Notes: generated by a model from the sequence alone, not told the origin. DNA of 64,000 nucleotides from an uncultured bacterium (GCA_963710755.1 CAVQBK010000002.1:160001-224000); one strand, 5' to 3'. Shown: positions 5,690-64,000, numbered from the stretch's first letter. Numbers and translations: made by a program.

Positions 5690-5696
5690 TATCAGC

Positions 5697-8126: not shown

Positions 8127-8230
8127 CTTTTATTTAGTTCCTGCTGTGGAAAGGACTTTTTTACAAAACAACTTACTGGTGTTGCAGCAAGAACTATTTA
8201 AATAAAATGAGCCGTCCGCACAGTAGGTCC

Positions 8231-30918: not shown

Positions 30919-30987
30919 TGGCAAACCTCCTTGTTGAGGATATTTTTTTGTTCAATTCACCAAAACTTCAACCCCGGCTACGCCGAA

Positions 30988-43080: not shown

Positions 43081-43830
43081 TTATCCTGAGGTGACCACCA
43101 GTCCGTTATTTTTCAAAACCCGGGCAGCTGCCTGCCATTGCCTAAAGGTAGGCGGTTTTAAGCTCGCCAATGGATAGGTCAATCCCAGCTCCTGCCATTT
43201 GTGTGCCCCCAAGCGATGATAACTGATCATTTCAATTTCAGGCAGATGAGGTAAACTGCGGGCATAATCAGCCAGCGCCTGCAGCTCGCCCGGCGCATCA
43301 TTGATGCCGGGCAGGAGCACGCGGCGAATCAGCAACCGCCCTGCTTGTCGGGCCGCCAAGCGGCCAAAGGTCAGCACATCATCATTAAATTTCCCGGTTA
43401 TTTGCTTATGCAGGTCGCGATCACAGGCCTTGACATCAAGCATAACCAAGTCCGTCACAGCCAAGAGGTTATTTTGATTTTTCACATGACAAGTCCCATT
43501 GGTGTCCAGGGCTGTGCTGAGACCCAGACGATGGGCGCATTTAAACAAGCCTACTACAAAGTCAGGTTGAAGGCTTGGTTCTCCACCGGAGACCGTTACG
43601 CCGCCGTGATGTTTGGCCAAATAAGGCACCAAAGTTGTCAACCGTTCTTCCGCTTCGGCCAGACTGATTTTTTGCGATCCTTTGATTGACCAGGTATCCG
43701 GATTCTGGCAAAAGGTACACCGGTAGTTGCAACCGGCTAGAAAAAACACGCACCGCAAGCCCGGCCCATCACGTGTGCCCAGGGTTTCAATGGAATGTAC
43801 CCGTCCTATAATCTTATTTTTACGAGGCAT
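43081..43830 (-). CDS. pflA: pyruvate formate-lyase activating enzyme (radical SAM)
   Basis: DGPGLR, CNYRCTFC (CxxxCxxC), SGGEP, LDTNG; probable start MPRK at 43830. Confidence 0.94.
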   Translation of the reverse strand: MPRKNKIIGRVHSIETLGTRDGPGLRCVFFLAGCNYRCTFCQNPDTWSIKGSQKISLAEAEERLTTLVPYLAKHHGGVTVSGGEPSLQPDFVVGLFKCAHRLGLSTALDTNGTCHVKNQNNLLAVTDLVMLDVKACDRDLHKQITGKFNDDVLTFGRLAARQAGRLLIRRVLLPGINDAPGELQALADYARSLPHLPEIEMISYHRLGAHKWQELGLTYPLASLKPPTFRQWQAAARVLKNNGLVVTSG

Positions 43831-43932
43831 GCTGTCCCCCTTTATTCCATCAAAGGCACTTAAACGCTGCCAAGGCGCAAGCAAGGCAGGAGTTCACACC
43901 GGTGAAATATTATTGACGCCGAGTTGGCCTGC

Positions 43933-46170: not shown

Positions 46171-46233
46171 TATTAAGCCCCTTTCTTGAGCCTAAACGAA
46201 AAACGCCCAGACTCCCACTTTGATAAAGCGGAT

Positions 46234-46314
46234 AGCCCAGGCGGTCGGCTACAACGCAATGCCTTGTGTCACAATGCTCCCTGATGGTCTTCCATCCGGC
46301 GCCAGTCGCATTGG
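46234..46314 (-). ncRNA. ZMP/ZTP (pfl motif) riboswitch
   Basis: Minus strand AATGCGACTGGCG...ATGG..ACCATCAGGGAGCATT...GCCGACCGCCTGGGC matches the pfl-motif consensus; overlapping terminator GCCTGGGC...GTCTGGGCGTTTTT (~46195-46243). Confidence 0.9.
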
Positions 46315-46371
46315 TCAAGGTAATTCCTGCTATTCTTTTATCAAAAAGAGACTCCAACTGTCAAGCCCATT

Positions 46372-48499: not shown

Positions 48500-50773
48500 C
48501 TAAACGGTGTCCTTATTTTTTTTATCATGGGGTTCTTTCTTTTTTATCACCTGCTTGAGCAGATCCATGATTCCGTCCGGGGTTACTTCCATCCAGCAAG
48601 CCAGCTCATTGCATACATCTTTATGGCAGGGCCAACAAGCCGGTGCGGCATGCACCGCCCGGTGTCCTGATTTCTCTGGATAAGGAAACCAAATAGCCGG
48701 ATCACTGGGGCCGAACAACCCGATGGTGGGCGTACCAGCTGCCGGGCCTAAATGCATGGGAAACGCATCATTGGACACCACGGCTGCGCACCGGCGCCAC
48801 AAGGCGGCCAAACGGCTGGGCGGCAAGCCTTCCACGCTTAAAGAAAGCTTGCCGGCTGCGTGCATGTAATCCAGTTTCAGCTCTTTTTCCAAAGGTCCGA
48901 AAACAAAAATACATTTCATGCCCAGTTCTTTGGGTGTGCGCTGGGCCAGCTCCAAAAAGTTTTTAAGCGGCCACCGTTTGGCTTGGTGGCTGCCACCGGC
49001 AAACAGCCCGATAATTTTCCCCGGCGTGACCTGCCGTTCTTTCAGGAAGCTGGTGATCCATAAATCATCTTCCTCGGTGATCACCCAGCGTGGCCGTAAT
49101 GACAATTGACGCATGCCAAAAGTTCTTAAAATATCATAAAACGATTCCCAGGCCGGCCGGACGCCCGGCTGATCAGCTTCGGTACGATAATCATAGAGCA
49201 GATCCCAAGCTGTGACCTTGGGTCCGATCCGGAAGCGTGCGCCGCTGACCAACGTCAGCAGGACCGTGCGGGGATTGCCGAAAAGATCACAGACCGCATC
49301 ATAATTTTGTTGGCGCAGAGTCCTGACCATGTTCCACCATGCCAAGAGTCCTTGCCTGGGCAAAGAGTAGACATGATCCCACAACGGCTCCCCTGCCGAC
49401 GCCCCCACGGAAGAAGGCTCCGTTAACAAGTCCACCCGGCTTCCGGGATAATCCCGTTTGACCAGACGGGCTACAGGAGAGGCCAGCAGCACGTCCCCGC
49501 GAAAACGGGGGCGCAAAAATAGAAGATTTGGTTTTTCCGGCAAACGCCATACCGGACCTGGCCCTGCATTCTCAAAATAAGCCGGCAGTAAGCCGCTTAG
49601 AAAATAAACAATGGTGATGACCTGGGAAGTCCCAAAATTGAATTCAAACAACCCATTAATCAGGAATCCCAGCATACCGGCGGTAATGCCCAGCACCACA
49701 GCTGCCTGATCGGGCTTTTGCTGCCGCAGGCGTTGCCAAGCAGCATAGCCATAAAGCAGCAGCACAATCATCCACCACAAGTACAGGCCTGCAGCTAACA
49801 AACCGCCATTGATGGCCATTTGCAGGATGGTGTTGTGTACATGCGGAGGCCGCTGTTCAATGGCTTTGGGGTTGGCTACCGGTCCGTAGTGCACCGATAA
49901 ATTGTCTACCCCATACCCGCGCAAGGGGCGCTGCTTGATCAGCTTCAAGGCGCTTACCCACATAAAGCGGCGCTCCACATTGCTCGATTGGTATTTGGAG
50001 TTGATGGAAAACACCCGTTGAGCTACAGGTGTATGTGGAAACAGGGCCAACAACATTACGGCCACGGCTAACAGGAGAGCAGGTAAACGCCAATTCTTCA
50101 GGGCGCCCACCACCAGCAAGGCCACGGCTGCGCCGATCCAGGAAGAGCGGGTATAGGTGAAAACCAGTGCCAGGCCCAACACCAAGGAAAGTCCCAAATA
50201 ACGCCAAGGGCGAACTTTTTTGGCATATAAGAAACGACTGACACTAATAACCAGACTAAGCATGTACATCCCACCGGCAGCCATATAATCACCGGAAAAG
50301 GAATGAGCCCGGCCACCATCCCAACCCAACAGATGGCTGATGATGGACCAAACCGCGCAGATGCCGGCGCCCACGAGAAAAAGGTTTACGGCGCGATCGG
50401 CTTTTAAGGGATGGCGAATCACATTGGCGGTCATGAAAAAAATAAGCATAAGCCCGACCTTGCGCACGCCGAAAAGACTGCTATTAAGCCTTCCTTCCCA
50501 AAGCGAAGCGCCGATCAGGACGACCGCCAGCAGGATCAAGGGCCAATTGATGGGTGTTTTAATAAAAAAAGGTCGTCTTGTAAGCAGCACCCACACCACC
50601 CAGGCCGCCAGACCTAAATAGATGATATTTTGCATACTGATACTGGCCACCGCTACGAGGGCAAAAAAAGGAACGCTCCAGCGGGCAATCCGTTCTGTGA
50701 TCAACGCCCAAGCTGCGCTTTTGGGCGTGAGTTGGGAAGATTGGTCCGGGACGGTATCCGACTCTTGGTTCAT
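48500..50773 (-). CDS. O-antigen ligase (WaaL/Wzy_C) fused to a C-terminal GT9 domain
   Basis: Multi-TM N-half with TYTRSSW, SNVERRFMW, GYG, HVHNTILQ; C-half RFRGDVLL, AKRWP, SNDAFPMHL, CWPC; ATGA coupling to upstream gene puts start at 50773. Confidence 0.85.
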   Translation of the reverse strand: MNQESDTVPDQSSQLTPKSAAWALITERIARWSVPFFALVAVASISMQNIIYLGLAAWVVWVLLTRRPFFIKTPINWPLILLAVVLIGASLWEGRLNSSLFGVRKVGLMLIFFMTANVIRHPLKADRAVNLFLVGAGICAVWSIISHLLGWDGGRAHSFSGDYMAAGGMYMLSLVISVSRFLYAKKVRPWRYLGLSLVLGLALVFTYTRSSWIGAAVALLVVGALKNWRLPALLLAVAVMLLALFPHTPVAQRVFSINSKYQSSNVERRFMWVSALKLIKQRPLRGYGVDNLSVHYGPVANPKAIEQRPPHVHNTILQMAINGGLLAAGLYLWWMIVLLLYGYAAWQRLRQQKPDQAAVVLGITAGMLGFLINGLFEFNFGTSQVITIVYFLSGLLPAYFENAGPGPVWRLPEKPNLLFLRPRFRGDVLLASPVARLVKRDYPGSRVDLLTEPSSVGASAGEPLWDHVYSLPRQGLLAWWNMVRTLRQQNYDAVCDLFGNPRTVLLTLVSGARFRIGPKVTAWDLLYDYRTEADQPGVRPAWESFYDILRTFGMRQLSLRPRWVITEEDDLWITSFLKERQVTPGKIIGLFAGGSHQAKRWPLKNFLELAQRTPKELGMKCIFVFGPLEKELKLDYMHAAGKLSLSVEGLPPSRLAALWRRCAAVVSNDAFPMHLGPAAGTPTIGLFGPSDPAIWFPYPEKSGHRAVHAAPACWPCHKDVCNELACWMEVTPDGIMDLLKQVIKKKEPHDKKNKDTV

Positions 50774-51498
50774 CGCTTCCTCCAAGCACGGTATTTAAGA
50801 TACCACGGTGATACTTTGCGTTTAAAATCCATGAGTTGATCTGACCCCTTCACATAAATACGCCGCAGGGCCCAGGGATCCTCAGTCACTGAGGCTGTGC
50901 CCGGCGAAATAGCGCAGGCTGTCTCGTAGCCCGCCTTTTTTACTTCGGCACGGGCATTTTTATCCCAGGCACCGTAAGGATAGCAAAAACTCTTAATCGC
51001 GCAGTCAAAAAGCTGCTCCAAGGTGATCTTGGAGCCTTTGACCTCATCCTTCAAAGCTATCGGCTCCATTTCCGGCAACGATTGATGGGTCAAGCCATGG
51101 GACCCCAGCTCCCAGCCGTCATCTACCAAGTGCTGACAGGATCTTCGGTCCATACAAGGCAGAATGGGTACTGACTGGTGCTGGTCCCAAAGATTGTGCT
51201 TGCCTAAAGCATGGGGCACTAAGAAAACGGTAGCTGTAAAGCCATGTTGGTCCAGGACGGGTTTGGCAAGATCAGCCACGCTCTGATAGCCATCGTCAAA
51301 AGTGATGACCACCGGTCTCGACGGTAATTCATCCTTTTCTTGCAAAAATGCCGCCAGACGCTCCATGGAAACCGTGTTATAACCCTTGCGTTTTAACCAC
51401 GCCATTTGACGCTCAAAGGCCTTAATCGAGACCACCAGATCCGAGTGGACTGAGCCCTCAGCCTGGAGATGATGGTACATTAAAATAGGTATATTCAT
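50770..51498 (-). CDS. polysaccharide deacetylase (NodB/CE4)
   Basis: PILMYH, TFDDGY, GSHGLTH, FCYPYG. Confidence 0.92.
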   Translation of the reverse strand: MNIPILMYHHLQAEGSVHSDLVVSIKAFERQMAWLKRKGYNTVSMERLAAFLQEKDELPSRPVVITFDDGYQSVADLAKPVLDQHGFTATVFLVPHALGKHNLWDQHQSVPILPCMDRRSCQHLVDDGWELGSHGLTHQSLPEMEPIALKDEVKGSKITLEQLFDCAIKSFCYPYGAWDKNARAEVKKAGYETACAISPGTASVTEDPWALRRIYVKGSDQLMDFKRKVSPWYLKYRAWRKR

Positions 51499-52742: not shown

Positions 52743-53759
52743 TCAAGCCCGGGCCGGCAGCAGGCGCTGCACTTGGGTCCATACCTGCTCCACGGTGATA
52801 GTTTGCATGCACTGCATATTTTTTAAAGGACATTCATTTTTAACGCAGGGAGCACAGCTCAACTGTTCGTTGCGGATATAAACGCTTTGGGATCCAAAGG
52901 GGCCGGTCACCCGGTGATCAGCCGCGCCTTGCAATACCAGCACCGGCACCTGCTGAGCATAGGCCATGTGCATGGCACCTGAATCATTGCTGATGACCAA
53001 ATCCAATTTCTCAATGACCGCCAGGCCCGTATCCAGATCGGTTTTGCCGGCCGTGATGATCACCTCGCCCCCGGCTTGTCGGGCTACCTGCTCAGCCAGG
53101 GGTAAATCAGCCGGTGACCCGAGCAGCACGACTTGCACCCCTTGGGCTTGAAGCAGGGTGGTCAGTTGGGCATAACGTTCCCAGGGCCAGCGTCTGCTGG
53201 GCGCTACCGAGCCGGGGGCCAAGCCTACCCTCACCCCAGTGGTGGCCGGCAACATGGTCTCAGCCGCAGCCTGAGCATGGCTGGAAGGTGCAGCAGCAAA
53301 ACCCCAGGCAGAGGCTGTTCCCGGATCGACCTTCAGGACACTCAACAGATGCAGATAACTTTGTGGCCTCGACCCCTGGCGCAGCGCTTTGGTCCAAGAC
53401 AGACCACGGGATAACAAAAGTGCCCGGCCTTGGGTACGGTAGCCAATGCGTTTGGGTATGGCAGCCCAAAAAGCCATCCAGGCGGCAGAGAAGGAATGAG
53501 GCAAAATCAGGACCACATCATACCGGCCCTGCCGCAGACGTTTGACTGTACTCAGCCAGGACCGTAACTTCCCGTGCCCATGGGAAGGTAATGGGATCAC
53601 CGTGGATACCTCAGGCAGGTTCTCCCATACTGCGGCCACCCAGGGTTTGGCCAAAATGTGGAGATCACATTGGGGCCAGCGTTTTTTTATAGCCTTGGCC
53701 AAAGGGGTGGCCATGATGGCATCACCCACCCAGTTGGGGCTTCTTAACAATAGTTTCAT
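52743..53759 (-). CDS. waaF: LPS heptosyltransferase II-like (GT9)
   Basis: PNWVGDAIM, PHSFSAA, SNDSGAMH, CAPC. Confidence 0.8.
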   Translation of the reverse strand: MKLLLRSPNWVGDAIMATPLAKAIKKRWPQCDLHILAKPWVAAVWENLPEVSTVIPLPSHGHGKLRSWLSTVKRLRQGRYDVVLILPHSFSAAWMAFWAAIPKRIGYRTQGRALLLSRGLSWTKALRQGSRPQSYLHLLSVLKVDPGTASAWGFAAAPSSHAQAAAETMLPATTGVRVGLAPGSVAPSRRWPWERYAQLTTLLQAQGVQVVLLGSPADLPLAEQVARQAGGEVIITAGKTDLDTGLAVIEKLDLVISNDSGAMHMAYAQQVPVLVLQGAADHRVTGPFGSQSVYIRNEQLSCAPCVKNECPLKNMQCMQTITVEQVWTQVQRLLPARA

Positions 53760-53812
53760 TTTTTTCCTATCTATCCATTCCTAAACCGGCAAAGCCGGAA
53801 TTAAATGCTATT

Positions 53813-53949
53813 TTTCATGCCAAGTTCGCGAAGGCGTCCCTTTATAATAACAGCTAACCAGTGGGGCAAAGAAAGATTAAAACCTTCAAAGGTTAGCTGC
53901 TTTATGTATCTTATGTTTATTTTGTTCTCCTTGCCGCCTTGACGTGAAA
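53813..53949. repeat. nested imperfect inverted repeat in intergenic region
   Basis: Outer TTTCATGCCAAGTTCGCGAAGG / CCTTGCCGCCTTGACGTGAAA; inner perfect CAGCTAACC (53851-59) / GGTTAGCTG (53891-99). Confidence 0.55.
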
Positions 53950-53993
53950 TGATTTTTTTTAAGAAACTTATCCGACCTTGATCCAGCAGGAGG

Positions 53994-54797
53994 CTATACT
54001 TTTTTAGCACGTTTAAACAAGGTTCTTAAGACCGGCAGGAGCTGCCCCTGCTGCTGATAAGCTTCCCAGACCTTGAGTTCCGTCACCAGCACATAGAGCG
54101 CGGAAAAACTGTGAAACATCCACCCTTCCGCGCCATCCTTAAAACCGCCTTGAAACAAGAAGGCTTTGATAAACCGGTGCAAGGGTTTGATCAATAAATC
54201 ATACCCCGTGGGATGGTGCTGTTTTTCCAGTAACCGCTGCGCTTCCACGGTGGTGTAGGTGTTGAGTTTTTGGAAGTAATGGGCAATATTACGATAGGAA
54301 TAATGCAGGATGTCGTGCTGCAGCCGCTCCACCGAGCCGTCCACCACAATCCCCCGATGCAGGCCGACTTCCGGATAACCGCCTTTTTGCCTTTTAAAAA
54401 AGCGCAGATGCAAATCAGGGTATAAATTGCCATGCTGAAGCCATTTGCCAAAGTGATAATTGCGAATGGGCACCCAATAGCCGTCGGCAGCCGCAGGCTG
54501 TGCAGCCACGGTCTTGATCTCACGAGCCAGCTCCTCGGTCACCCGCTCATCAGCATCCAGAATAAAAACCCAATCCCCGGTCAGGCAAGAGAGCCCAAAT
54601 ACACGGGCTGGTTCCGGATAGCCGTGATGACCTCGGAAGGTTTCAATACGCGCTCCGGCTTCGCGGGCCAAGGCCACCGTATTGTCCGTGCTTTCATTGT
54701 CCACCACCACCACTTCATCGGCAAAACTCAGGGACTTAAGGCAGGCCTCAATGTGGTAGGCTTCATTGTAAGTATGAACCACAGCGGAAATGGTCAT
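53994..54797 (-). CDS. GT2 glycosyltransferase (KdtX/WaaE-like)
   Basis: TYNE, STDNT, LDADE, HYSY. Confidence 0.9.
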   Translation of the reverse strand: MTISAVVHTYNEAYHIEACLKSLSFADEVVVVDNESTDNTVALAREAGARIETFRGHHGYPEPARVFGLSCLTGDWVFILDADERVTEELAREIKTVAAQPAAADGYWVPIRNYHFGKWLQHGNLYPDLHLRFFKRQKGGYPEVGLHRGIVVDGSVERLQHDILHYSYRNIAHYFQKLNTYTTVEAQRLLEKQHHPTGYDLLIKPLHRFIKAFLFQGGFKDGAEGWMFHSFSALYVLVTELKVWEAYQQQGQLLPVLRTLFKRAKKV

Positions 54798-55579
54798 GCC
54801 CGGCCTGTGATGGTCTTTAAATAAAACTGTTCATATGCTTTGACCATATCCTGCTTATTAAACATTTTGCGTACTTGATATTTGGCGCTCTCTCCCATCT
54901 GCATCCTTTTAAGGGGATTGCAAATGAGGTGGTAAATGGCATCAGCCATAGCACTGGCATTTTGCGCAGGCACCAACAGACCGGTTTCATTGTGTTTGAC
55001 GATTTCCGGCACACCACCTGCATTGGTGGCCACCACCGGCAGGCCGTGGGCCATGGCCTCCACCAGCACCAGGCCAAAAGGTTCGCAATCACTGGGCAGC
55101 ACGAAAATATCCAGCGCTGACATAAAGCGGCTCACCTCTTTCTGATAACCGGGAAAAAAGATAGCATTGAGGGCACGCAATACCCGGGCCCGCATGATGA
55201 TGGTGGTGGAATAGGACGAATCCTGACGATAAGCCTTGCCCCCCAGTAAAAATTTCACACTGGGGTTCCAGCGCATGATCATTTCTCCAGCAGCAATGAA
55301 TTGGGGGAAGCCTTTATTGGGCCGCCAAATGCCGGTGGTACCCACCACCGGCGCACCCACGTCAATGCCCAACTCCTCGCGCAGGCTGGAAGGAAATTCT
55401 TTTTCCACTTCCACATTGGTGGAGCAATAGATGCGTTCGGTTTTGGCTTCATCAATACCGTAACTTTGCACCAATCGTTTCACATAATCGGAAATGCAGA
55501 TAAAGGTATGGGTTTTATCGGCCATGCGGGCCATGTTGCGGGCCACGTATCCCGGCCGGTTCTTCATTTTCTCACTCAT
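54794..55579 (-). CDS. GT4 glycosyltransferase, C-terminal part
   Basis: NKG, EPFGLVLVEAM, GGVPEIV. Confidence 0.8.
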   Translation of the reverse strand: MSEKMKNRPGYVARNMARMADKTHTFICISDYVKRLVQSYGIDEAKTERIYCSTNVEVEKEFPSSLREELGIDVGAPVVGTTGIWRPNKGFPQFIAAGEMIMRWNPSVKFLLGGKAYRQDSSYSTTIIMRARVLRALNAIFFPGYQKEVSRFMSALDIFVLPSDCEPFGLVLVEAMAHGLPVVATNAGGVPEIVKHNETGLLVPAQNASAMADAIYHLICNPLKRMQMGESAKYQVRKMFNKQDMVKAYEQFYLKTITGRA

Positions 55580-55965
55580 GGGGCCACCAGCCAAACCATG
55601 GGAATTTTGGCCCAATGACAGGGATAGGCCGCCAATTTGGCTTCCTGTAAACCACTGACATGAACCAACTTAAATGGAATCTGCTTGATATAGCGATAAA
55701 ATTTCCAAAGCGCAGGAATGGACCGGTGGAGATTGCGCCATTTGGCTTTGGGAAAAGGGATGATTTTCGGCTCCAACCCTTTTTGCCTCAAGCTGTCCGC
55801 GAACAGGCCCTCTTCACAGCACACCACATAAGGCGTGAAGCGCGATCTGTCCAAGCCTTCGAGCAAGGTAAGCAAATGAATCTGTCCGCCGCCAATGGTC
55901 CCGTGGTAATTGACGAAAAGAATGGGATAGGGTTCCATGAGCTGCGTTTGGATGTTCTTGGACAT
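55576..55965 (-). CDS. GT4 glycosyltransferase, N-terminal part
   Basis: ILFVN...IGGGQIHLLTLLEGLDRSRF typical GT4 N-terminus; ends at ATGA overlap with the C-terminal part. Confidence 0.7.
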   Translation of the reverse strand: MSKNIQTQLMEPYPILFVNYHGTIGGGQIHLLTLLEGLDRSRFTPYVVCCEEGLFADSLRQKGLEPKIIPFPKAKWRNLHRSIPALWKFYRYIKQIPFKLVHVSGLQEAKLAAYPCHWAKIPMVWLVAP

Positions 55966-56058
55966 GGTAGAGTCCCTGCTTTTACTAAGGTGTGTCAGAG
56001 TTTAACAACAAACCGGCCTGGGATCAATGGAGAAATGACCCTCCCGGACGGTGGCGCG

Positions 56059-57216
56059 TCAAGGCCTGCCGACTACCAGACAGGCGGCTTTTTGATCCTC
56101 CTCCAGGGCCAGGATCATCACTGTGCGCATCTCTAAAGACCGGACTTGACGGTCCAGCTGGACGTGGTCATAAATTTCGGGATGGCTTAAATTAACTGTA
56201 GGCGGCAGTTTCCCTTGTCTCATGGCTTCCAGAGCCACCACCGTGGCCATGGCACCAAAGGCATGGCCTGTCTCTCCCCAGGCGCCTTTCAGAGCCACCG
56301 CCGGCAACCGTGGGGGCAAAACTTTTTTAAGGGCTGCATTTTCCATGTCATCTTGTTGGACATACCCATTGGCTGCCAATAACAAGGCATCAATCTCCTG
56401 CGGTTGGCAGCGGGCCATGGCTAGGGCCTGGTTCATGGCTCTGACCGCAGCCTCCGGCCCATGGGCGCCATATTGACTGGCCAAACCAAACCCCTGCAAC
56501 TCACCCAACAAAGGCATACCCAAAGCCATGGCTTGCTGACGCTCCATTAATTGCATCAAGCCGCAACCTTCACCTCCAGCTACCTGACCTGATGGAACAT
56601 GGCTAAAAAGGGATGGGCGCCGGTCTTCCTTATTATACACAGCCAGACCTTGCAGTTCCTCCGGTGATTGCTGCTCTGTGGCCCCTGCCCATATTAGTCG
56701 GCTCCGTTTGGTGACCAGGGCCTGGGCCCCAAAAAACAGGGCTTCCAAACCAGCCGTAGGGCCTGACGACAAGGTCAGGCTCATAGCGGCAAGGCCATGT
56801 CTGATCGCGCTGTGAGCGGCTGGAGCATTGCTGGGCAGATTGATAAACATCTGGGGATGAATTAAATTGAGCTGTCTCTGATGAAGGGCATGGAGGATTT
56901 CATCAGGATAAGGATTGATCTTGCAGGCCACCACCATGCCCTGTTCCTGAAGGGGCACGGCCGTCGTTGGGCTTTCCCCAAGCCTTTGGGCCGCATAGCC
57001 GAGCATAAGGCTTTCTTTTTGAGCTTGCCGCCAGCCGGTGCCCTGCAATTGGGTTTTAATCTCAGTGGTCACCAGGCCCGCAGGGAAGGTTACCGGTCCC
57101 AGAGACAGGGCCCTAAAGGCCTGCTCACCGGCAAAAAGCCTGTTGACCGCCTGCTCATGGTCAATCCCTAATGAACAAATAATATGGGCATGGGTAATGA
57201 CAATGCTGTCCTGCAT
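56059..57216 (-). CDS. non-catalytic ketosynthase-like subunit (chain-length-factor-like)
   Basis: KS fold; SSGPTAG at the catalytic Cys position, AANG instead of HGTG, WGE instead of GH. Confidence 0.8.
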   Translation of the reverse strand: MQDSIVITHAHIICSLGIDHEQAVNRLFAGEQAFRALSLGPVTFPAGLVTTEIKTQLQGTGWRQAQKESLMLGYAAQRLGESPTTAVPLQEQGMVVACKINPYPDEILHALHQRQLNLIHPQMFINLPSNAPAAHSAIRHGLAAMSLTLSSGPTAGLEALFFGAQALVTKRSRLIWAGATEQQSPEELQGLAVYNKEDRRPSLFSHVPSGQVAGGEGCGLMQLMERQQAMALGMPLLGELQGFGLASQYGAHGPEAAVRAMNQALAMARCQPQEIDALLLAANGYVQQDDMENAALKKVLPPRLPAVALKGAWGETGHAFGAMATVVALEAMRQGKLPPTVNLSHPEIYDHVQLDRQVRSLEMRTVMILALEEDQKAACLVVGRP

Positions 57217-57295
57217 GGGATGCTCCGTAATTAGGCTGATACCTTCAACCGTTTCGACAAGCCCGGCGGCCGGAGTAAGCCAATGACTTATGAAC

Positions 57296-58528
57296 TTAGT
57301 TTTCCACAGCCTTAAACACTACCGCGCAATTGGCGCCGCCAAAGGCCGCGGCATTGGTCAAACACGTACGCAAGGTCCCTGGCCGCGGCTGTTTACTCAC
57401 CACATTCACCGGACATTGGGGATCGGGCTGCTCATGATTAACGGTTGGCGGCAGCACCTGCTGGTTAAGACTGGTAATAGCCAGACAGGCTTCAATCAGG
57501 CCGGCAGCAGCAATAGTATGCCCGACAGCCGCTTTGGCCGCGGTTACAGGCACAGCACGACCGCCAAAAACCTGGACCAGGGCGTTGGCTTCAATCATAT
57601 CATTGGCGATGGTGCCTGTCCCGTGGGCAAAAACACCATCCACCTCATCAGGACCGAGCCGGCTATCCTTCAAGGCCTGACTCATGGCTTGGACCATGCC
57701 CTGACCTTGCGGTTGCGGAGCCACCAGATGATAGGCATCATTGGACCAACCGTACCCCAGCACTTCCGCCTTGGCTTGGGCCTGTCGTCTTTTCAGACTG
57801 CTTTCAGTCTCCAAAAGCAAAGCCGCGCAGCCATCGCCCAGAACCAAGCCCTGACGGTGGCGATCAAAGGGTCTACAAAAATCAGGCGCCAAAACACGCA
57901 AACTGCAAAAACCTGAAAAAATGTAAGGCGAGGTAATATCCACACCTACACACAACGCTTGCGCGCTTAAGCCCTGGCGAAGATGGGCCACAGCACTGGC
58001 CAAAGCATACCCTCCGGCAGCACAGGCGTTGCTGTTGAGGACCAACCAGCCTTGCAGGCCCAAGGCCCGGGCGGTTTGTGTCAATACGCTGCTGGTTGGA
58101 TAACCAGGCCGATGAACCGGCAAATTTTCCTCTTCACCAAGGGCAGGAGCGTCGTTTAGCCAGGTTTTCTGCAAGTGTTGGATATGGGCCAGAAAATCAC
58201 CCTGAGTCGTGGCCAGAAATAATGGGAGCTGTGGTTGGCCGGCCTTACCGTCAGGCATTAATAAAGCCGCCTGCGCCAATACGCTGCGACTGCACGCCAG
58301 AGTTAATTGCACCGCCGGATCAAGGGCGTGGTTTTCTTCCGGAGTTAACTGCGGCCATTGGCTAAATGTTTTAATCTCGGCTGCCCGATGCATTGGCAAC
58401 CACTGGGTATCAAAATGCTCGACCGGCGCAATTCCGCATTGCCCCTTCAGCAGGGCCTGCCATAGGCTATGCTGATCCCGTCCCAAGCTGGTAATACTTT
58501 CCAAAGCTGTAATAAATAGGCGTTCCAT
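57296..58528 (-). CDS. beta-ketoacyl-ACP synthase (FabF/KS-alpha-like)
   Basis: Intact SNACAAG, AHGTGT, GHTIAAAG; AFGGAN. Confidence 0.92.
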   Translation of the reverse strand: MERLFITALESITSLGRDQHSLWQALLKGQCGIAPVEHFDTQWLPMHRAAEIKTFSQWPQLTPEENHALDPAVQLTLACSRSVLAQAALLMPDGKAGQPQLPLFLATTQGDFLAHIQHLQKTWLNDAPALGEEENLPVHRPGYPTSSVLTQTARALGLQGWLVLNSNACAAGGYALASAVAHLRQGLSAQALCVGVDITSPYIFSGFCSLRVLAPDFCRPFDRHRQGLVLGDGCAALLLETESSLKRRQAQAKAEVLGYGWSNDAYHLVAPQPQGQGMVQAMSQALKDSRLGPDEVDGVFAHGTGTIANDMIEANALVQVFGGRAVPVTAAKAAVGHTIAAAGLIEACLAITSLNQQVLPPTVNHEQPDPQCPVNVVSKQPRPGTLRTCLTNAAAFGGANCAVVFKAVEN

Positions 58529-58562
58529 CAGGGTCCTTTTTTCTTTGGTTCAGCAGCCCACA

Positions 58563-58988
58563 TTAGGTACGCTGATTAAGGCCGACAACTGTTTGCCCAA
58601 AATAAAAATCGCCCTCAGTTAGCAGCTCGTCGTTTGAGGTGACCTGCACATGGTAGGCGGCCTGATGCTCCATGGCTTTAAGCAAGCGGGCCTCAATTAT
58701 TAGTGCTTCCCCGGGATAGGCTGGCCGTTGCCAGTGCACATTATGCAGGCGGGTAAGAAAAGACTGATACTGAAAACCACCGCGGTATTCATCCAGCCGT
58801 CCGGCCGTTTGAGCCATGGTCTCCACCAACACAAACCAGGCTAAACAAGGGGCACCGGTCTGGTCCGGGTATAAGGACCATTCATTGGTTGTCACCATTT
58901 TTATAACCCGGCAGGACGTTTGATCACGCGTCAAGAGGCGATCGATAAAATCAAAAGGATAGACTTGGGACTTGCCTTCCTGGGCCAT
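58563..58988 (-). CDS. FabZ-like hot-dog dehydratase (catalytic His apparently absent)
   Basis: YPFDFIDR, KMVTTNE, LVETMAQ, PAYPGE; probable start MAQE at 58988. Confidence 0.75.
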   Translation of the reverse strand: MAQEGKSQVYPFDFIDRLLTRDQTSCRVIKMVTTNEWSLYPDQTGAPCLAWFVLVETMAQTAGRLDEYRGGFQYQSFLTRLHNVHWQRPAYPGEALIIEARLLKAMEHQAAYHVQVTSNDELLTEGDFYFGQTVVGLNQRT

Positions 58989-59016
58989 TAGCCGCTGCTT
59001 TCCTGCTCCGGGCAAA

Positions 59017-60693
59017 TCAGGCCGATGGCTTGGCCCGAAACCAGTGCCAAGCAGTAAGAGCGCTAAACAACACCACAATAATCAGGCAGAGCCAGGCAAA
59101 TACATCCCCCAGGCGGACATAGACCGACGTGCCCCGCATGGCCGGCATATCCGTGACCAGTACGCTTTTGGTGAGATAAGGCGTGGATTTGCGCACCAAG
59201 CCCAGGGCGTCAATAACCACCGTGCCGCCCATACTGGCATTTTTGGCCACCCAGCGTCTGGTTTCAATGGCCCGGAAACGGGCATTGATGACATGTAAAT
59301 AATAATCGGTGGGTTTACGGAACCAATTGTTGGCGGAAGGACAGAAAAACATTTCCGCCCCTTTTTTAGCGGCTTCCCGGAAATAAGTTGAATAAAACAC
59401 TTCAGCACAAACTTTAGGGCTCACTTTAACACCTGCCATATTAAAAAGCTTCTCTTCCTGCCCCCGGTTCAGATCATAAATATCCTCCCTGGGCGAGGAG
59501 AGGGCGCGCAAATCCATTCCCCGGTGGGTCAGACGATGGTAACCATCACTCAGCATGGTCATCAGTCCGCGCATGGGCATATATTCTCCAAAGGGTGTCA
59601 AGTAGCGCTTGATATAATAATTAAGCACATGGCCGTTTTGATCCACATAATACCAGACATTGTAATTACGATGGTCGTCACTGATGGACAACAGGCCCAG
59701 CATGGCCGGCATATGCACTTCTTCAAAAATGGATTTCAGGTCATACCACAAATTAACCGATTCCGGCAAAAAACCGGGTACAGCATTTTCCGTTAGCACC
59801 AACACATCGGCTTTTTGGCTTGCAGCTTCCAGGGCCATTTCCCTAAGCATGCGGGTGACCCGGTATTCCGTGCCCCGGTCCCAGCGTTTTTCCATGGATA
59901 CATCGTGATTGGTCTGTAAAAAAGCCGGCTTGATCATGGTGTCGCTTTGCGCCTGTTGTGCAGCGGCCCTGCCGGCATCAAGGTTGCCGAACAAAACAAG
60001 CAGCGCCATGAGGGCCGTAAGCCCCAGGCCAAGTCTCATGGCCTTGTGCCGCTCGTCAGAAGTCAAGGGCTGGACTTTGGGCCTTAGCCCCAGCCAGACC
60101 CTGGCCTTTTCCCAGCCCAGCAGCTTGTCATAGATCACCAGCACGCCGGCGGCACTGGCCAGGAGTCCCAGAAAAGCCGGACCGTAAATACCGGTAATGG
60201 AGGCCATTTGTACCAAGGGTAAAATGCCGGCCATGGGAATGGCAAAAAAGATGCTCGGCGGCGGAGAGAACCACAGGCTCTGGGACAAAGAAATGCGCAC
60301 GAATTCCTGGGTTACCAACAAGGCGGGCATGACCAGGATAAATGCCCAGCGGTAGCGCTGGGTAATCCAACTGGCCAGCCATCCCGTGAGGCCATACATA
60401 AGAAAAAGGACCACGCCCAGGAGGCCGTAAATCATCCAGGCAATGGCCGGGAAATATTCCATTTGGGTAAGGAAAAACGCGACCGGCATCATGATGGCCA
60501 AGCCGCTGAGCCCGCACCACAAAAAGGCTTTGCGGCCGTGATAACGAAGGGTTAAAAACATGAAGGGCGCCATGCATAATAAAAAAGAAAGGAGCGAAAA
60601 CCAAGTGGGCTCAAGAAAGGTATTGTTGGGCCAGGCAAAATAAGCATACAGGGCTTGCAGTGCAAACATCAGAAATAAATAACGTTTCTTCAC
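59017..60693 (-). CDS. apolipoprotein N-acyltransferase (Lnt)-like membrane nitrilase-fold acyltransferase
   Basis: Multi-TM N-domain, QMASITGIYG, Glu-Lys-Cys triad in LTENA / KRYLTPFGEY / VCAE, RAIE, Y.RLGD. Confidence 0.85.
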   Translation of the reverse strand: MKKRYLFLMFALQALYAYFAWPNNTFLEPTWFSLLSFLLCMAPFMFLTLRYHGRKAFLWCGLSGLAIMMPVAFFLTQMEYFPAIAWMIYGLLGVVLFLMYGLTGWLASWITQRYRWAFILVMPALLVTQEFVRISLSQSLWFSPPPSIFFAIPMAGILPLVQMASITGIYGPAFLGLLASAAGVLVIYDKLLGWEKARVWLGLRPKVQPLTSDERHKAMRLGLGLTALMALLVLFGNLDAGRAAAQQAQSDTMIKPAFLQTNHDVSMEKRWDRGTEYRVTRMLREMALEAASQKADVLVLTENAVPGFLPESVNLWYDLKSIFEEVHMPAMLGLLSISDDHRNYNVWYYVDQNGHVLNYYIKRYLTPFGEYMPMRGLMTMLSDGYHRLTHRGMDLRALSSPREDIYDLNRGQEEKLFNMAGVKVSPKVCAEVFYSTYFREAAKKGAEMFFCPSANNWFRKPTDYYLHVINARFRAIETRRWVAKNASMGGTVVIDALGLVRKSTPYLTKSVLVTDMPAMRGTSVYVRLGDVFAWLCLIIVVLFSALTAWHWFRAKPSA

Positions 60694-60759
60694 GTTGCTC
60701 GTCCTTTCCTCGCCTGAAAAGCAGCATGGTTCTGCCGGCCAGGCTGATGGCGCCTCGTT

Positions 60760-61002
60760 TTATTGGATCTTCTTTTCGATCAACTCAACCAAATCCTGTA
60801 AGGTATTAACGGTTTTGAATTCCGCTTCTTTGATCTCAATTTTAAAGGTACGTTCCAGGGCCACCAGGATTTCCAAAATCATCACGGAATCTGCCTGCAT
60901 GAATTCATTCAGATTTTTGTCCAGGCATATGTCTTCAACCGGCAACTCCAGAATCTCAGCAATAATGGTCGTTAATTGATCGGCAATAACGGACATGCCC
61001 AC
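60760..61002 (-). CDS. acyl carrier protein
   Basis: 80 aa, acidic, ADSV motif, LERTFKIEI. Confidence 0.9.
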   Translation of the reverse strand: MGMSVIADQLTTIIAEILELPVEDICLDKNLNEFMQADSVMILEILVALERTFKIEIKEAEFKTVNTLQDLVELIEKKIQ

Positions 61003-61072
61003 ACTCCCCTGGAGGTTTGGTCCTTTTAGGAACCCTTAATACCATACACTAGCAAAAGTCCAAATGCAATCC

Positions 61073-61831
61073 TTAAGCCTTGGCCTGCTTCAGCAGTTCC
61101 CAATGCTTGCTGTGCTTGATGAGGGTATTGTAACTGGACAACAAACAGAGCACCAGTCCCGGAAACCCGTCACGCCAACCGGCTTTGAGCAAATACATTT
61201 TTAAAAAAGTCCACAGGGGATCACCCCACCAGCGCAGGCGGGTGAGCTTTTTGCCTCTGGCCATACGGTCCTGCGCGGCCAAGCTGGTGTAATGATTAAG
61301 CCGCTCCATATAAGCAGTAAGATCGGGATAGGAATAATGGTTGAGCAGTGCCTTGAGCCGGCCCATCTGCCCCTGCACCAGCAGGCGCTCATGCACTGCC
61401 TTTTCTTCGAAGCGCCCCTGACCGGCTTTGAAAAGACGCAGCTGATAATCAGGGGCCCAACCGCAGCCTTTGATGGCGCGGTTAAGAAAAAAATTGCGCC
61501 GTGACAGCCAAAAGCCGGTACACCCTTTGGGATTGTCCACACGTTGCCGGATTTCCCGGGCCAGCTCAGGAGTGACGATTTCATCGGCATCAATGGACAA
61601 AACCCAACCATCATGAACCTCGCCCACCAGATGGTTCTTGGTGATACCATACCCTTCCCAGGCCACGGTTTTGACCAGGGCGCCCTGCGCTTCTGCCAAT
61701 GGCACTGTTTCATCAGCAGACCCGTTCTCACCCACCACCACCTGATCACAAAAGGATAAGGCCTGCACGCATTGGGCAATGGTGCGCGCTGCATTTTTGG
61801 CAATGATGATAGCCGTTATTTTTTCGGACAT
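61073..61831 (-). CDS. GT2 glycosyltransferase (KdtX/WaaE-like)
   Basis: IIAKN, GSADET, IDADE, VHE, HYSY. Confidence 0.9.
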   Translation of the reverse strand: MSEKITAIIIAKNAARTIAQCVQALSFCDQVVVGENGSADETVPLAEAQGALVKTVAWEGYGITKNHLVGEVHDGWVLSIDADEIVTPELAREIRQRVDNPKGCTGFWLSRRNFFLNRAIKGCGWAPDYQLRLFKAGQGRFEEKAVHERLLVQGQMGRLKALLNHYSYPDLTAYMERLNHYTSLAAQDRMARGKKLTRLRWWGDPLWTFLKMYLLKAGWRDGFPGLVLCLLSSYNTLIKHSKHWELLKQAKA

Positions 61832-61968
61832 AGGGCAATCCCTCGTTTGAAAATAGGATCCTTTAACCTTTTTTTATTGCAGGTAACCGGCTGCTTGTCC
61901 GGCGCCTGCCGGCATAACCATGCCTATTAAATAGGGGCAAATTAAAACTGCCGTTTACGCCAAAGAAA

Positions 61969-62985
61969 CTAATTGTTTTTTGTCACAGAGCCCTGCTCCA
62001 ATTGCTCCATTGCCTCCAGCACCTGCTCCACCGTAATGCCGGTCATGCAGGCATGATGACCCAAGGGGCATTGTTTGCTGCCGTGGACCGCGCAAGGCCG
62101 GCAAGGCAGCTCCACACTAAGCACGCGGCAGCGAGCGCTGCGCGGCATAAAACCAAAGGCTCCTACCGTGGGACCAAATAGTGCCACTGCTTTGGTGCCG
62201 CTGGCCAGTCCCAGATGCAAGGGGCCTGAATCATTACTGATCAGGACCATGGCCTGCGACAGCAGCACCGCCAATTTGGTGAGCGAGGTTTTGCCGATCA
62301 AGGACAGCACGGGTTTGGAGGTTTGGGCCTTGATGCGCTGGCCAATGGGAAATTCATCATGATCCCCAATCAACACCACCTGAACCCCGCGTTCCGTCAG
62401 ACGATCGGCCAGAGTGATAAACCGTGTTTCCGGCCAGCGTTTGGTTGCCCACTTGGCGCCCGGTGCCAGCACTGCCACATCACGGTTAAGGTCCAGGCCA
62501 TCGGCCTGCAACTGGTCCAGATAGGCTTCCCGGTCAATACCATCGAAAGAAAGCCTGGGCTCGCGAGAGACCAAGGCATATCCCACCTGCCGGGCGGCTT
62601 CACCATACCAGTCTACCACTGAAGATCGCTCATCCAAAAGCGGCCAGCGGTGCCACCAACAGCGCCTGCCCTGAGGCCGCACCAATAGCCTTCTGGCCAA
62701 GGCATGCTTGGGGTAGTGGACCAGGCTTTTTCTCCGTATATGACGCAGCACCTTGGCCGAACGTCCGGTTCGGTGCAGATCGAGCACGACATCAAAGGTA
62801 TACTTGGGTTTTTGATTGGGTAACAGAATATGATCCGCCCCCGGCAATATGCTGCCCAAAGCTTTATAGGCATCCTGCACCATCAGGGTGACTTCATCCC
62901 CGGCCGCGTGCACAGCCTCCAATACCGGTTGGGTTAAAATAATATCTCCCAACGAACTTAAGCGGGCGACCAGAATTTTTTTCAT
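61969..62985 (-). CDS. GT9 glycosyltransferase
   Basis: RLSSLGDIIL, APGAKWATKRWP, SNDSGPLHL, CRPC. Confidence 0.9.
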   Translation of the reverse strand: MKKILVARLSSLGDIILTQPVLEAVHAAGDEVTLMVQDAYKALGSILPGADHILLPNQKPKYTFDVVLDLHRTGRSAKVLRHIRRKSLVHYPKHALARRLLVRPQGRRCWWHRWPLLDERSSVVDWYGEAARQVGYALVSREPRLSFDGIDREAYLDQLQADGLDLNRDVAVLAPGAKWATKRWPETRFITLADRLTERGVQVVLIGDHDEFPIGQRIKAQTSKPVLSLIGKTSLTKLAVLLSQAMVLISNDSGPLHLGLASGTKAVALFGPTVGAFGFMPRSARCRVLSVELPCRPCAVHGSKQCPLGHHACMTGITVEQVLEAMEQLEQGSVTKNN

Positions 62986-64000
62986 AGGTGTGAGGGTCCT
63001 TTAGCCAGGGGCTGCAGAAATGTTTGCCAAGGTGTTTCTTGAGACGGTGTTTGCACCTGGAAGCGAACCGCCAGGGCCCAGGCTTCGATGGAACTGGCAG
63101 CAGGCCAGTTAACCTTAACCATATCTTTGGTGGTCATCACCACAGCTGCATGATGACGTCTGGCCAATTTTTCCCATTGGCGGAGTTGGTCCGGGCGGTA
63201 CCAAAAATGATCGGGATATCGCTGGTGATGACAAACCACGGCCCCGCAGGCTTCCAGGGTATTGATAAAAGCCTGCGGTTTAGCTATACCCGACACGGCC
63301 ACCACCCGTTGACCCTTCAGTACCTCCACAGGCCTGACGGTGTTGGTTTTAACATCCACCAGTTGGTAAGCCTTGTGACTGGCGTGATAAACCGGTTTGC
63401 TCTGGCCAATAGTCCGCCGGATCAGCTGCTCCAGAGGCTGGGGATCAACCTGGTCGCTGCGGGTAATGATGATCATATCCGCATCCGCCATGGCTGTAAG
63501 CGGTTCACGGTAAGGACCGGCCGGCAGCACCCTGCCCGACAGCGCTTGTTTATCGCTGGCATCCATAAGCAAAATCTCCAAATCGCGAAACAGTTGGAAG
63601 CGCCGTTGAAAGCCGTCATCAAGAATCAAGATCTGGCAACCTAATTGCTCCACCGCCAGCATCCCGGTTTGGAAGCGATCCCGCCCCACCACCACAGCTG
63701 CCTGGCCCAGGAAACGCTGGGCCAGGGCATAAGGTTCATCACCACCGGCCCGGGGATCAGCCCGCAACGTTTGCCCATCAGATACCACTACCAAGGGGTC
63801 GCGGCTATGACGCCGGTAACCGCGCGACAGGATGGCTGGTTTGAGGCCGGCCTTAACCATCTGATCGCAAACCCAGGCCACGGCTTCAGTCTTACCTGTG
63901 CCGCCCACGGTCAGATTGCCTATGGAAATCACAGGAACAGGACATTTGCGCGGAGGTTGTTGTTGGGCTTTGACCTGCTGACGTTCAAGACCCCAGGTGT
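62982..64000 (-). CDS. lpxK: tetraacyldisaccharide 4'-kinase (5' end runs off window)
   Basis: PVISIGNLTVGGTGKT, LSRGY, GDEP, LDDGFQ, LPAGPYREP, TTKD. Confidence 0.95.
   Translation of the reverse strand, partial: TWGLERQQVKAQQQPPRKCPVPVISIGNLTVGGTGKTEAVAWVCDQMVKAGLKPAILSRGYRRHSRDPLVVVSDGQTLRADPRAGGDEPYALAQRFLGQAAVVVGRDRFQTGMLAVEQLGCQILILDDGFQRRFQLFRDLEILLMDASDKQALSGRVLPAGPYREPLTAMADADMIIITRSDQVDPQPLEQLIRRTIGQSKPVYHASHKAYQLVDVKTNTVRPVEVLKGQRVVAVSGIAKPQAFINTLEACGAVVCHHQRYPDHFWYRPDQLRQWEKLARRHHAAVVMTTKDMVKVNWPAASSIEAWALAVRFQVQTPSQETPWQTFLQPLAKGPSHL

Follow-up and report, generated by a model that had tools for sequence, protein, structure and literature searches.

A divergent Lnt paralog linked to private fatty acid/polyketide synthase-like genes in one bacterial order: a candidate envelope-lipid tailoring system

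We analyzed a 64,000-nucleotide stretch of DNA from an uncultured bacterium (GCA_963710755.1 CAVQBK010000002.1:160001-224000; hereafter "the window"), to which all coordinates refer unless a contig or locus identifier is given. The genome from which it comes (G000) is assembled in 13 contigs and is 98% complete. Calling of open reading frames (ORFs) identified five on the minus strand at 56059-61002, referred to here as the cassette. The first encodes an acyl carrier protein (ACP) of 80 amino acids (60760..61002; proteins of this type have 78-80 amino acids), which matched PF00550 with 51.9 bits. It is followed by a protein of 558 amino acids resembling the apolipoprotein N-acyltransferase Lnt (59017..60693), with matches to PF00795 (46.5 bits), PF20154 (28.8 bits), and TIGR00546 (149.4 bits); a hot-dog protein with the FabZ fold (58563..58988); a FabF-like ketosynthase (KS) of 410 amino acids (57296..58528) with both PF00109 and PF02801 domains; and a KS-like partner of 385 amino acids (56059..57216; PF02801, 48 bits; PF00109, 24.8 bits), which we term the chain-length factor (CLF)-like protein, or CLF. 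The hot-dog ORF extends in full over 58563-59078 (171 amino acids); its start is likely to be Met31, yielding a protein of 141 amino acids, and with this start the intergenic gaps in the cassette are 28-79 bp. A preceding reading of the window (the sequence-only reading) had described five co-directional genes within an lpxK/heptosyltransferase locus for the lipopolysaccharide (LPS) core, and this observation was confirmed with respect to coordinates, strand, and domains.

Judged by its sequence and structural model, the Lnt-like protein is a specialized, divergent third Lnt paralog with a predicted acyltransferase function. Its score with TIGR00546 was marginally above the equivalog threshold (149.4 versus 132.9 bits), and it was the lowest of the three Lnt matches in the genome (264.6, 257.2, and 150.1 bits). 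When compared with E. coli Lnt, the other two scored 135 and 107 bits versus 67.8 bits for the cassette copy, which was 21% identical to the E. coli protein over the aligned part. We constructed a tree with FastTree, a method by which long branches are joined more readily, from 73 Lnts, i.e., 28 subfamily rows, 43 others, and the genome's own two; the 28 rows formed a single clade, with a support of 100, apart from all of the remainder. The sequence-only reading had assumed a repurposed enzyme rather than the housekeeping one, and the paralogy agrees with this assumption: the cassette protein is not the sole genomic Lnt, two others in the genome scoring better, and as a third copy lying in a separate clade it is not an ortholog of the housekeeping Lnt.

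The catalytic triad of the cassette Lnt (Glu302-Lys362-Cys429) is intact when aligned with P. aeruginosa Lnt (5n6m), and the Glu-Lys-Cys triad was invariant in all 15 genome-derived members of the subfamily. Residues in common with ordinary Lnts comprise Glu302, Lys362, Cys429, Glu431, and Glu370, and seven positions set the subfamily apart from the 43 other Lnts; at one of them, located two residues ahead of the catalytic Glu, Trp is replaced by Phe. An AlphaFold2 model of the protein had a predicted local distance difference test score (pLDDT) of 93.4 and a predicted template-modeling score of 0.93. When this model was submitted to Foldseek, the top 20 matches listed were all Lnt structures, the best being E. 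coli Lnt (8b0l; template-modeling [TM] scores of 0.74/0.81), on the full-length structure of which the model could be superposed. As in the overall plan of Lnt, there are eight predicted transmembrane helices and a nitrilase domain. The N-terminus, the loop at 194-211, and the C-terminus are rich in Lys and Arg, which by the positive-inside rule places residues 249-530 in the periplasm. Thus, the nitrilase domain is predicted to be periplasmic, as it is in E. coli Lnt. With a periplasmic active site and an ACP that is cytoplasmic, the cassette Lnt could not take a chain straight from the ACP. The direct transfer of a chain from a polyketide synthase (PKS) to Lnt that was implied by the sequence-only reading had to be abandoned, since the predicted location of the nitrilase domain demands a lipid intermediate.

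We surveyed 99 genomes of the phylum, 15 of them in the same order as the window and 84 outside it. Members of the Lnt subfamily, called with a profile of 15 cassette-type Lnts at E<=1e-60, were found in 10 of the 99 genomes; all ten were among the 15 of the order, and none of the 84 genomes outside it had one. A profile search of 1.84 billion cluster representatives returned 15 proteins at 301.8-810.5 bits, after which scores dropped to 209.2 bits and below. In a word-index protein search with the Lnt-like protein, three matches reached E<=1e-30 among 8000 candidates scored (100%, 85%, and 50% identity). A scan of genome contigs recovered one locus, on a contig that shares its length (15,881 bp) and gene content with the contig of G001. 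A metagenome scan with generic Lnt motifs was uninformative on the rarity of the subfamily. A cassette-type CLF, called at >=343 bits, was present in 11 of the 99 genomes. Ten of these were the genomes with the Lnt subfamily; the eleventh, G006, has a completeness of 87%, and at the edge of one of its contigs lies an N-terminal fragment of an Lnt-like protein. In the four genomes of this order that were negative for the CLF, the Lnt subfamily was likewise missing.

The relatives with these genes (G001, G003-G007, G009, and G012-G014) are all assemblies of the metagenome-assembled genome (MAG) type from a single order. In nine of them (G001, G003, G004, G005, G007, G009, G012, G013, and G014), the subfamily Lnt gene adjoins a hot-dog gene and an acyltransferase (AT) gene and, where the contig permits, ACP, KS, CLF, and ketoreductase (KR) genes also lie alongside. 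The simplest complete arrangement, in G012, is ACP-Lnt-hotdog-AT-KS-CLF-KR; single-operon versions in relatives comprise seven genes in about 7 kb. Tandem Lnt genes occur in G009 (ACP-Lnt-Lnt-hotdog-AT-KS-CLF-KR) and in G007 (ACP-KS-CLF-Lnt-Lnt-Lnt-KS-CLF-hotdog-AT-KR), in the latter of which an Lnt gene overlaps the next KS gene by 4 bp. In G003 the order is ACP-Lnt-KS-CLF-Lnt-hotdog-AT-KS-CLF-KR, with a third Lnt-like gene elsewhere, and in G014 it is Lnt-AT-ACP-hotdog-KS-CLF-KR. The cassette of G005 is divided, with KS-CLF-ACP separated by approximately 8.6 kb of other genes from Lnt-hotdog-AT-KS-CLF-KR. G001, which belongs to the same genus as the window, has ACP-Lnt-hotdog-AT-KS-CLF in the same LPS locus, and the short contigs of G004 and G013 carry Lnt-hotdog-AT. 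An enoyl reductase gene was found in none of the cassettes. The gene set and its order are thus conserved beyond this genome, recurring in nine other genomes of the order.

As a control for this neighborhood, we used the best 80 loci (879 kb) from the metagenome scan; all of them hold ordinary Lnts, recovered with generic Lnt motif patterns and showing 22-32% identity. None of the 80 had a homolog of the KS, CLF, ACP, AT, or KR nearby; one had a hot-dog gene 8.5 kb away. Because the same gene set recurs around the Lnt subfamily in nine genomes and around none of the 80 ordinary loci, the arrangement is more than chance. We conclude that the gene system is genuine, conserved, and restricted to one lineage, and that it ties a distinct clade of Lnts to private genes resembling a type II fatty acid synthase (FAS) or PKS and to a PlsC-type AT.

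Genetic linkage might nevertheless exist without any biochemical coupling: the Lnt could be a spare lipoprotein enzyme acting on ordinary phospholipid, while a special fatty acid for the membrane would be made independently by the other genes, with all of them grouped in a "membrane lipid" operon. The Lnt fold, the triad, and the TIGR00546 score are all compatible with the ordinary reaction, and Lnt genes are numerous in the order, with three to six matches per genome in most of those that bear the cassette. However, co-occurrence of the Lnt subfamily with the cassette CLF is strict, both being found in the same 10-11 genomes and in none of the other 88, and their linkage survives rearrangements, duplications, and sequence divergence of 30-40%. 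Moreover, the genome already has two other Lnts, and ordinary Lnt loci do not have such neighbors. We regard an absence of coupling as unlikely, and retain as our working proposal a system in which the Lnt paralog would use the product of its neighbors.

A feature that had been missed by the sequence-only reading is that the five genes of the window are not the complete parts list. The window cassette itself lacks the AT and KR genes, which in relatives sit inside the cassette; in this genome they are found at a second locus with the order AT-KS-CLF-KR (contig C3:573236-577171; locus L025 9237-13175). Within the genome, the cassette-type ACP and hot-dog protein are encoded only in the window and the AT and KR types only at the C3 locus, so the two loci are complementary halves. 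The window cassette is therefore one half of a system whose components are an ACP, one or two KS/KS-like pairs, a KR, a hot-dog protein, an AT, and one to three copies of Lnt. The C3 locus is followed by a CinA gene, which also follows the cassette in G003, G005, and G007. A PAP2 phosphatase gene and a second CE4 deacetylase gene lie near the C3 locus, between pyrimidine genes.

The AT is of the PlsC type, matching PF01553 with 70.3 bits here against a cut-off of 23 (a score of 50.5 was also found). The His and Asp of its HX4D motif (His84 and Asp89) were invariant in all ten members, in which FPQG-R-RD and VP-VPV blocks were also conserved, and its second NCBIfam match was to acyl-[ACP]--phospholipid O-acyltransferase. 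The KR is a FabG-like short-chain dehydrogenase/reductase that scored 226.5 versus a cut-off of 222 with NF009466 and fell under the cut-off of TIGR01830 (264.6 versus 297.75); its identity to the housekeeping FabG, encoded on contig C6, is 38%. Housekeeping FabZ, AcpP, FabG, and FabF are encoded at other sites, with 50%-74% identity to their E. coli counterparts.

The Ser of the DS motif in the cassette ACP aligns with Ser36 of E. coli AcpP. The protein scored under the cut-off of every NCBIfam ACP model, including the AcpXL-type model NF005079 (22.1 versus 83), and is the sole copy of its type in the genome, the housekeeping AcpP being encoded on contig C6. Matches of the hot-dog protein to FabZ, FabA, and 4HBT models were likewise all sub-threshold (46 versus 155 for TIGR01750). 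Its AlphaFold2 model had a pLDDT of 84.9, and the Foldseek matches listed were nearly all FabZ structures, with TM scores of 0.72-0.80, led by anammox amxFabZ (8ayd) and E. coli FabZ (6n3p). With amxFabZ (8ayd/7qv0), the best structural match, TM scores were 0.74-0.77, a likeness at the level of the fold with 23% sequence identity. Unlike amxFabZ, which has a catalytic His judging by the entry title "H48N mutant," the cassette protein has none. Thus, the description "FabZ-like" given by the sequence-only reading is upheld by the predicted model as to the fold, and fails for the catalytic His. One of the ten hot-dog members examined had a His in the column adjacent to that of the FabZ His and another had no His at all, while the equivalent of FabZ Glu68 was present in all ten. 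The hot-dog protein may be a partner subunit, a thioesterase, or something else.

The KS has an active site consisting of Cys169, His302, Lys332, and His337, and these columns were kept in all 11 cassette KS proteins. It scored 280.5 bits with TIGR03150, versus a cut-off of 493.75. At the KS catalytic columns, the CLF of the window has Pro, Ala, Lys, and Glu. Among the 11 CLF members, the Cys column contained Phe in five, Tyr in two, and His, Asn, Trp, or Pro in one each, and never Cys or Gln; the first His column contained Ala, Ser, or Asn, and the second Glu or Asp. The pairing of a KS with a non-catalytic partner, proposed from the window alone, thus held throughout, with Cys-His-His in 11/11 KS proteins and Cys in 0/11 partners. 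The cassette KS proteins (support 95) and CLFs (support 100) each formed one clade relative to the two other stand-alone KS paralogs of the genome that were tested. The KS/CLF duplications are lineage specific, and the window pair and its G001 ortholog lie on a long branch.

The best KS match by sequence in the PDB was 9s5h_B (232.4 bits), and the CLF matched 9s5h_C at 51 bits; a literature search for this entry returned no paper. A KS-CLF heterodimer was predicted with an interaction score (ipSAE) of 0.95, versus 0.01 for the best of three controls, a result that may reflect likeness to solved KS-CLF complexes. In the benchmark for such predictions, 58 of 80 solved complexes attained the mark, as did 2 of 110 mismatched pairs. 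Contacts agreed between runs to at least 92%, and the pLDDT of the partner was at least 90. When plasmids were searched by tblastn with the CLF, the only matches were to assorted FabF-like, NodE-like, and PKS genes, at identities of 31% or less. Elsewhere in the genome, an ORF of 2184 amino acids on contig C4 (200496-207051) contains a KS domain and resembles a type I PKS or a polyunsaturated fatty acid synthase, and there is a further KS match at C4:194540-195559.

An active KS with a Cys-less partner is also the arrangement in the KS-CLF pairs of type II PKSs, such as those for actinorhodin (1tqy) and ishigamide-type compounds (6kxd), AntDE (6smo), and the unnamed pair in 9s5h_B/C. In the CLFs of aromatic type II PKSs, a Gln occupies the place of the KS active-site Cys. 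In the cassette CLF there is no Gln at this position, and in contrast to type II PKSs we saw no cyclase, aromatase, or other PKS tailoring genes.

Two other families of private-ACP systems merit comparison. The acpXL-fabZXL-fabF2XL-fabF1XL-adhA2XL-lpxXL cluster of Rhizobiales is described in the cited text as placing a fatty acid of very long chain length on lipid A (PMC11901934). A private ACP, a FabZ-type protein, two FabF-type proteins, a dedicated acyltransferase, and the decoration of an envelope lipid are points of likeness, and enoyl reductase is not among the genes that this source lists for the cluster, just as it is missing from the cassette (PMC11901934). Whereas the acpXL cluster has an LpxL-type transferase acting on lipid A, the cassette has a PlsC-type AT and a periplasmic Lnt paralog, plus a KR, and there is no PF03279 protein within it. 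The NCBIfam models NF005079, NF006587, and NF005084, which we take to stand for the XL proteins, were not matched at their cut-offs by the window proteins: NF006587 gave 181.8 versus 470, NF005084 did not match the KS or CLF, and the value for NF005079 is given above.

The second comparison is with the aryl polyene (APE) cluster of E. coli CFT073 (apeA-R), in which, according to the portion of the source consulted, ApeD, of the lysophospholipid acyltransferase (LPLAT) family, is suggested to attach the chain to an anchoring lipid (PMC8253772). As in the cassette system, there are one or more ACPs, a KS paired with a chain-length factor, a KR of the FabG type, and an LPLAT-family protein, the destination of APE being given there as the outer membrane (PMC8253772). 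In the alignment column of the catalytic His, ApeP is His-less like the cassette hot-dog protein, while ApeI has the His. However, the cassette contains no acyl-ACP synthetase, methyltransferase, thioesterase, or glycosyltransferase gene, and no LolA/MMPL export genes. Its CLF of 385 amino acids compares with 240 for ApeC, to which it had no BLAST match, and APE clusters are without Lnt. Judged by Ape orthologs and accessory genes, the cassette is not an APE cluster.

If the cassette were to belong with these known systems, the shared parts would be as expected, i.e., an ACP, a KS with a non-catalytic partner, a KR, a His-less hot-dog protein (ApeP), and an LPLAT-type acyltransferase (ApeD) in the case of APE, so far as the cited account goes (PMC8253772), and an ACP, a FabZ-like gene, and two FabF-like genes in the case of acpXL-lpxXL, as listed in the text cited (PMC11901934). 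When the cassette proteins were compared by pairwise BLAST with the Ape proteins of E. coli CFT073 and the FAS II proteins of strain K-12, a different picture emerged: the CLF did not match ApeC, the hot-dog protein matched neither ApeI nor ApeP, the AT matched ApeD at 29.6 bits, and the KS was as near to FabF (171 bits) as to ApeO (155 bits). No adenylating enzyme, methyltransferase, thioesterase, LolA-like, or MMPL protein was present among the annotated cassette neighbors. The scores with the AcpXL and FabF1XL models were far under their cut-offs, and the CLF lacks the active-site Gln. We consider such membership very improbable. By these comparisons, the cassette shares the logic of acpXL/lpxXL and APE (private ACP, KS pair, dedicated transferase, envelope lipid) but appears to be a member of neither. 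Searches of the literature for Lnt combined with CLF, KS, paralogs, or polyketide clusters yielded, among the titles and abstracts listed, no description of such a system, in line with the statement in the sequence-only reading that it knew of none with this composition.

A third comparison, with E. coli Lnt and its LplT-Aas cycle, bears directly on how the parts might work together. In E. coli, Lnt removes the sn-1 chain of phosphatidylethanolamine (PE), with lyso-PE as the remainder; at the cytoplasmic face, the PlsC-like domain of Aas uses acyl-ACP to restore a chain to lysophospholipid, according to the source cited (PMC11416262). The cassette system resembles this cycle in the Lnt fold, the Glu-Lys-Cys triad, and the presence of Lnt alongside a PlsC-type AT and an ACP. 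It differs in that the acyl-ACP synthetase half is missing from the AT, which stands alone, and in that a dedicated KS/CLF feeds a private ACP.

Our favored interpretation, offered tentatively and held at slightly less than even confidence, is that the seven components form a lineage-specific system for tailoring an envelope lipid, in which a custom chain would pass via phospholipid and the Lnt paralog to a periplasmic amine, most likely that of lipoproteins. Chain extension would take place in the cytoplasm on the private ACP, through the KS/CLF pairs together with the KR and the hot-dog protein, and perhaps with help from the housekeeping FabD and FabZ and an enoyl reductase; very long, hydroxylated, or polyunsaturated chains are all candidates. 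Because the active site of Lnt would be periplasmic while the ACP is cytoplasmic, we offer the PlsC-type AT as the missing link: it would move the chain from ACP to lysophospholipid or glycerol phosphate, in the manner of the acyltransferase half of Aas and of ApeD. The chain-loaded lipid would then be flipped to the outer leaflet, where Cys429 of Lnt would accept the chain and an amine on the periplasmic side would receive it from there, the most probable one being that of the N-terminal Cys of apolipoproteins or of a subset of them. Finally, the lysolipid would be re-loaded. Every one of these steps, together with the donor and the acceptor, is something we infer; the sequences and models themselves show which genes are present and conserved, the paralogy of Lnt, intact active-site residues and motifs, the folds of Lnt and FabZ type, and a predicted topology. 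The core idea of the sequence-only reading, a repurposed Lnt served by a dedicated chain-building pathway, is retained in this scheme; the link to LPS, the parts list, and direct transfer from ACP to Lnt are not.

Several observations weigh against this scheme. Although the triad was invariant in the genome-derived members, Glu302 was kept in only 26 of the 28 subfamily rows and Cys429 also in 26 of 28, the departures at these positions (two at each) including one Gly and one Asn. A His at the column of FabZ His54 was found in none of the ten hot-dog members, which leaves dedicated dehydration unproven, and the AT scored below the cut-off of the NCBIfam PlsC domain model (53.9 versus 102.95) and so is no equivalog. 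With E. coli queries at E<=1e-4, the genome had no homolog of a flippase, LplT, or Aas, so that the return leg of the shuttle is without a candidate. No acceptor gene is conserved next to the cassette, and one to three Lnts per cassette are hard to explain if the sole acceptor is the single amine of a lipoprotein. The instances are not independent, all of the relatives being MAG-type assemblies from one order, and the step from gene neighborhood to use of the cassette product by Lnt is one that we infer from sequence.

With regard to the acceptor, lipoproteins are the default for the Lnt fold; copy number and the lack of a conserved acceptor gene mean that lipid head groups or LPS amines may serve instead. 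Two large ORFs beside the Lnt-like genes of G003, which were candidate acceptors, had no obvious signal peptide or lipobox at their N-termini. Outside the genus, annotated neighbors of the cassette were Band7/NfeD, PPDK, response regulator, and CinA genes. In G007 and G009 (L016 17249-19445 and L017 4916-7545), SPFH/Band-7 and NfeD genes lie immediately upstream of the cassette ACP gene. In G009, an Lnt domain at C1:297824-299275 lies inside an open frame of 1285 amino acids, suggesting a fusion protein.

One form that a non-protein acceptor could take is a membrane lipid, with Lnt N-acylating PE (to form N-acyl-PE) or another aminolipid to create a new bulk or signaling lipid. Structure entry titles indicate that the active site of Lnt already binds PE, tandem Lnts could serve different head groups or chains, and no gene for an acceptor protein is conserved by the cassette. 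On the other hand, the literature consulted on Lnt contained no family member of this kind, and the cassette enzyme has kept Glu302, Lys362, Cys429, Glu431, and Glu370, with just seven subfamily-specific positions; we think it improbable that a membrane lipid is the acceptor.

An LPS acceptor would fit the surroundings of the cassette in the window. Upstream lie genes encoding LpxK (62982-63932), a GT9 heptosyltransferase (61969-62985), and a GT2 glycosyltransferase (61073-61831); downstream are GT4 (two ORFs), GT2, two GT9 genes, a CE4 deacetylase gene (50770-51498) 4.5 kb from the cassette, and an O-antigen-ligase/GT9 fusion. According to this alternative, Lnt would attach the chain made by the cassette to the free amine of an amino sugar in the core or in lipid A, possibly after its exposure by the CE4 enzyme. 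The LPS core passes through the periplasmic leaflet, where it could be reached by an Lnt-type active site, and a cassette with more than one Lnt would make sense if there were more than one amine to acylate. The same setting among lpxK, GT9, GT2, and GT4 genes, with a CE4 deacetylase gene downstream, occurs in G001. However, when eight loci from relatives (L016-L023, of which L019 is that of G001) were compared for LPS context, nine proteins of the LPS locus matched only L019. LPS genes thus lie beside the cassette only in this genus, and the neighbors elsewhere are those listed above; the proposed connection of the cassette to LPS and the CE4 deacetylase did not extend to the other seven loci.

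Moreover, the window carries a second private lipid gene set on the minus strand, a usual route to a special lipid A chain. It consists of genes encoding an ACP (8231-8482), a FabF-like KS (6761-7975; PRK07314, 389.7 versus 387), a degenerate KS-like protein of 355 amino acids with no Pfam match (5697-6764), and a lipid A acyltransferase of the LpxL family (4805-5689; PF03279, 125.9 bits). Beyond it lies a gene for a PorV/PorQ-family outer-membrane protein, also on the minus strand (3501-4589). This ACP-KS-KS-like-LpxL-type set (4805-8482) resembles the acpXL/lpxXL design and is a better candidate than the cassette as the source of any special lipid A chain. Taking these points together, we regard an LPS amine as a distinctly unlikely acceptor. 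The idea that the cassette itself is a lipid A very-long-chain system was rejected on account of its failure to reach the cut-offs of the XL-type models and of the presence of this separate LpxL-type set.

A broader formulation of our favored interpretation leaves the acceptor wider: an as yet undescribed type of trans-membrane acyl relay, in which a polyketide-like or very long chain would travel on a phospholipid carrier to a dedicated Lnt clade and be attached in amide linkage to lipoproteins or other envelope amines. In this specific form, we hold the relay to be doubtful, although conceivable. Lnt is regarded as a housekeeping enzyme acting on bulk phospholipid, and a conserved clade of Lnts that, in the genomes sampled, is encountered only together with its own ACP, KS/CLF, KR, and AT would change this view. 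If the tailoring system operates as proposed, cells could custom-build the third acyl chain carried by their lipoproteins, or else a chain attached through an amide to a different envelope molecule. The N-acylation of lipoproteins could in that case be programmed with a bespoke lipid; for the Lnt fold, an antibiotic target, this would be a second, specialized use and would widen the uses known for it. It would also provide a worked example of how an acyl chain made in the cytoplasm can reach a periplasmic transferase, and a third design of envelope-lipid system built from a private ACP, a KS pair, and a dedicated transferase, beside acpXL/LpxXL and APE/ApeD.

A scan of 53500-64000 for promoters and terminators gave results at chance level, with 8 promoter-like sites (8.3 in shuffled sequences) and 10 terminator-like sites (14.8 in shuffled sequences), and a scan with Rfam found no RNA family inside or beside the cassette. 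Among sequencing runs, no RNA run was listed as containing the sequence and one DNA run matched a small share (0.17) of its words, a result that bears on neither expression nor habitat. The GT4 gene directly downstream (54794-55965) is split, an N-terminal ORF of 129 amino acids overlapping a C-terminal ORF of 273 amino acids. An identical split in G001 (L019 3481-4700) means either that the arrangement as two genes is conserved or that both genomes share a frameshift. Further downstream, at 48500-50785, the fusion protein of 761 amino acids combines an O-antigen-ligase (Wzy_C) membrane domain with a domain of the GT9 heptosyltransferase type.

Elsewhere in the window, the interval 43081-46319 contains genes for a glycyl radical enzyme resembling pyruvate formate-lyase and for the radical-SAM activase of this enzyme, preceded by a ZMP/ZTP riboswitch (pfl motif) at 46228-46319. 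Finally, ORFs at 1853-3055 (400 amino acids) and 29716-30924 (402 amino acids) show the same pattern of nested ORFs and look like a duplicated gene; they are possibly the two copies of tuf that adjoin tRNA and ribosomal/rpoBC genes.

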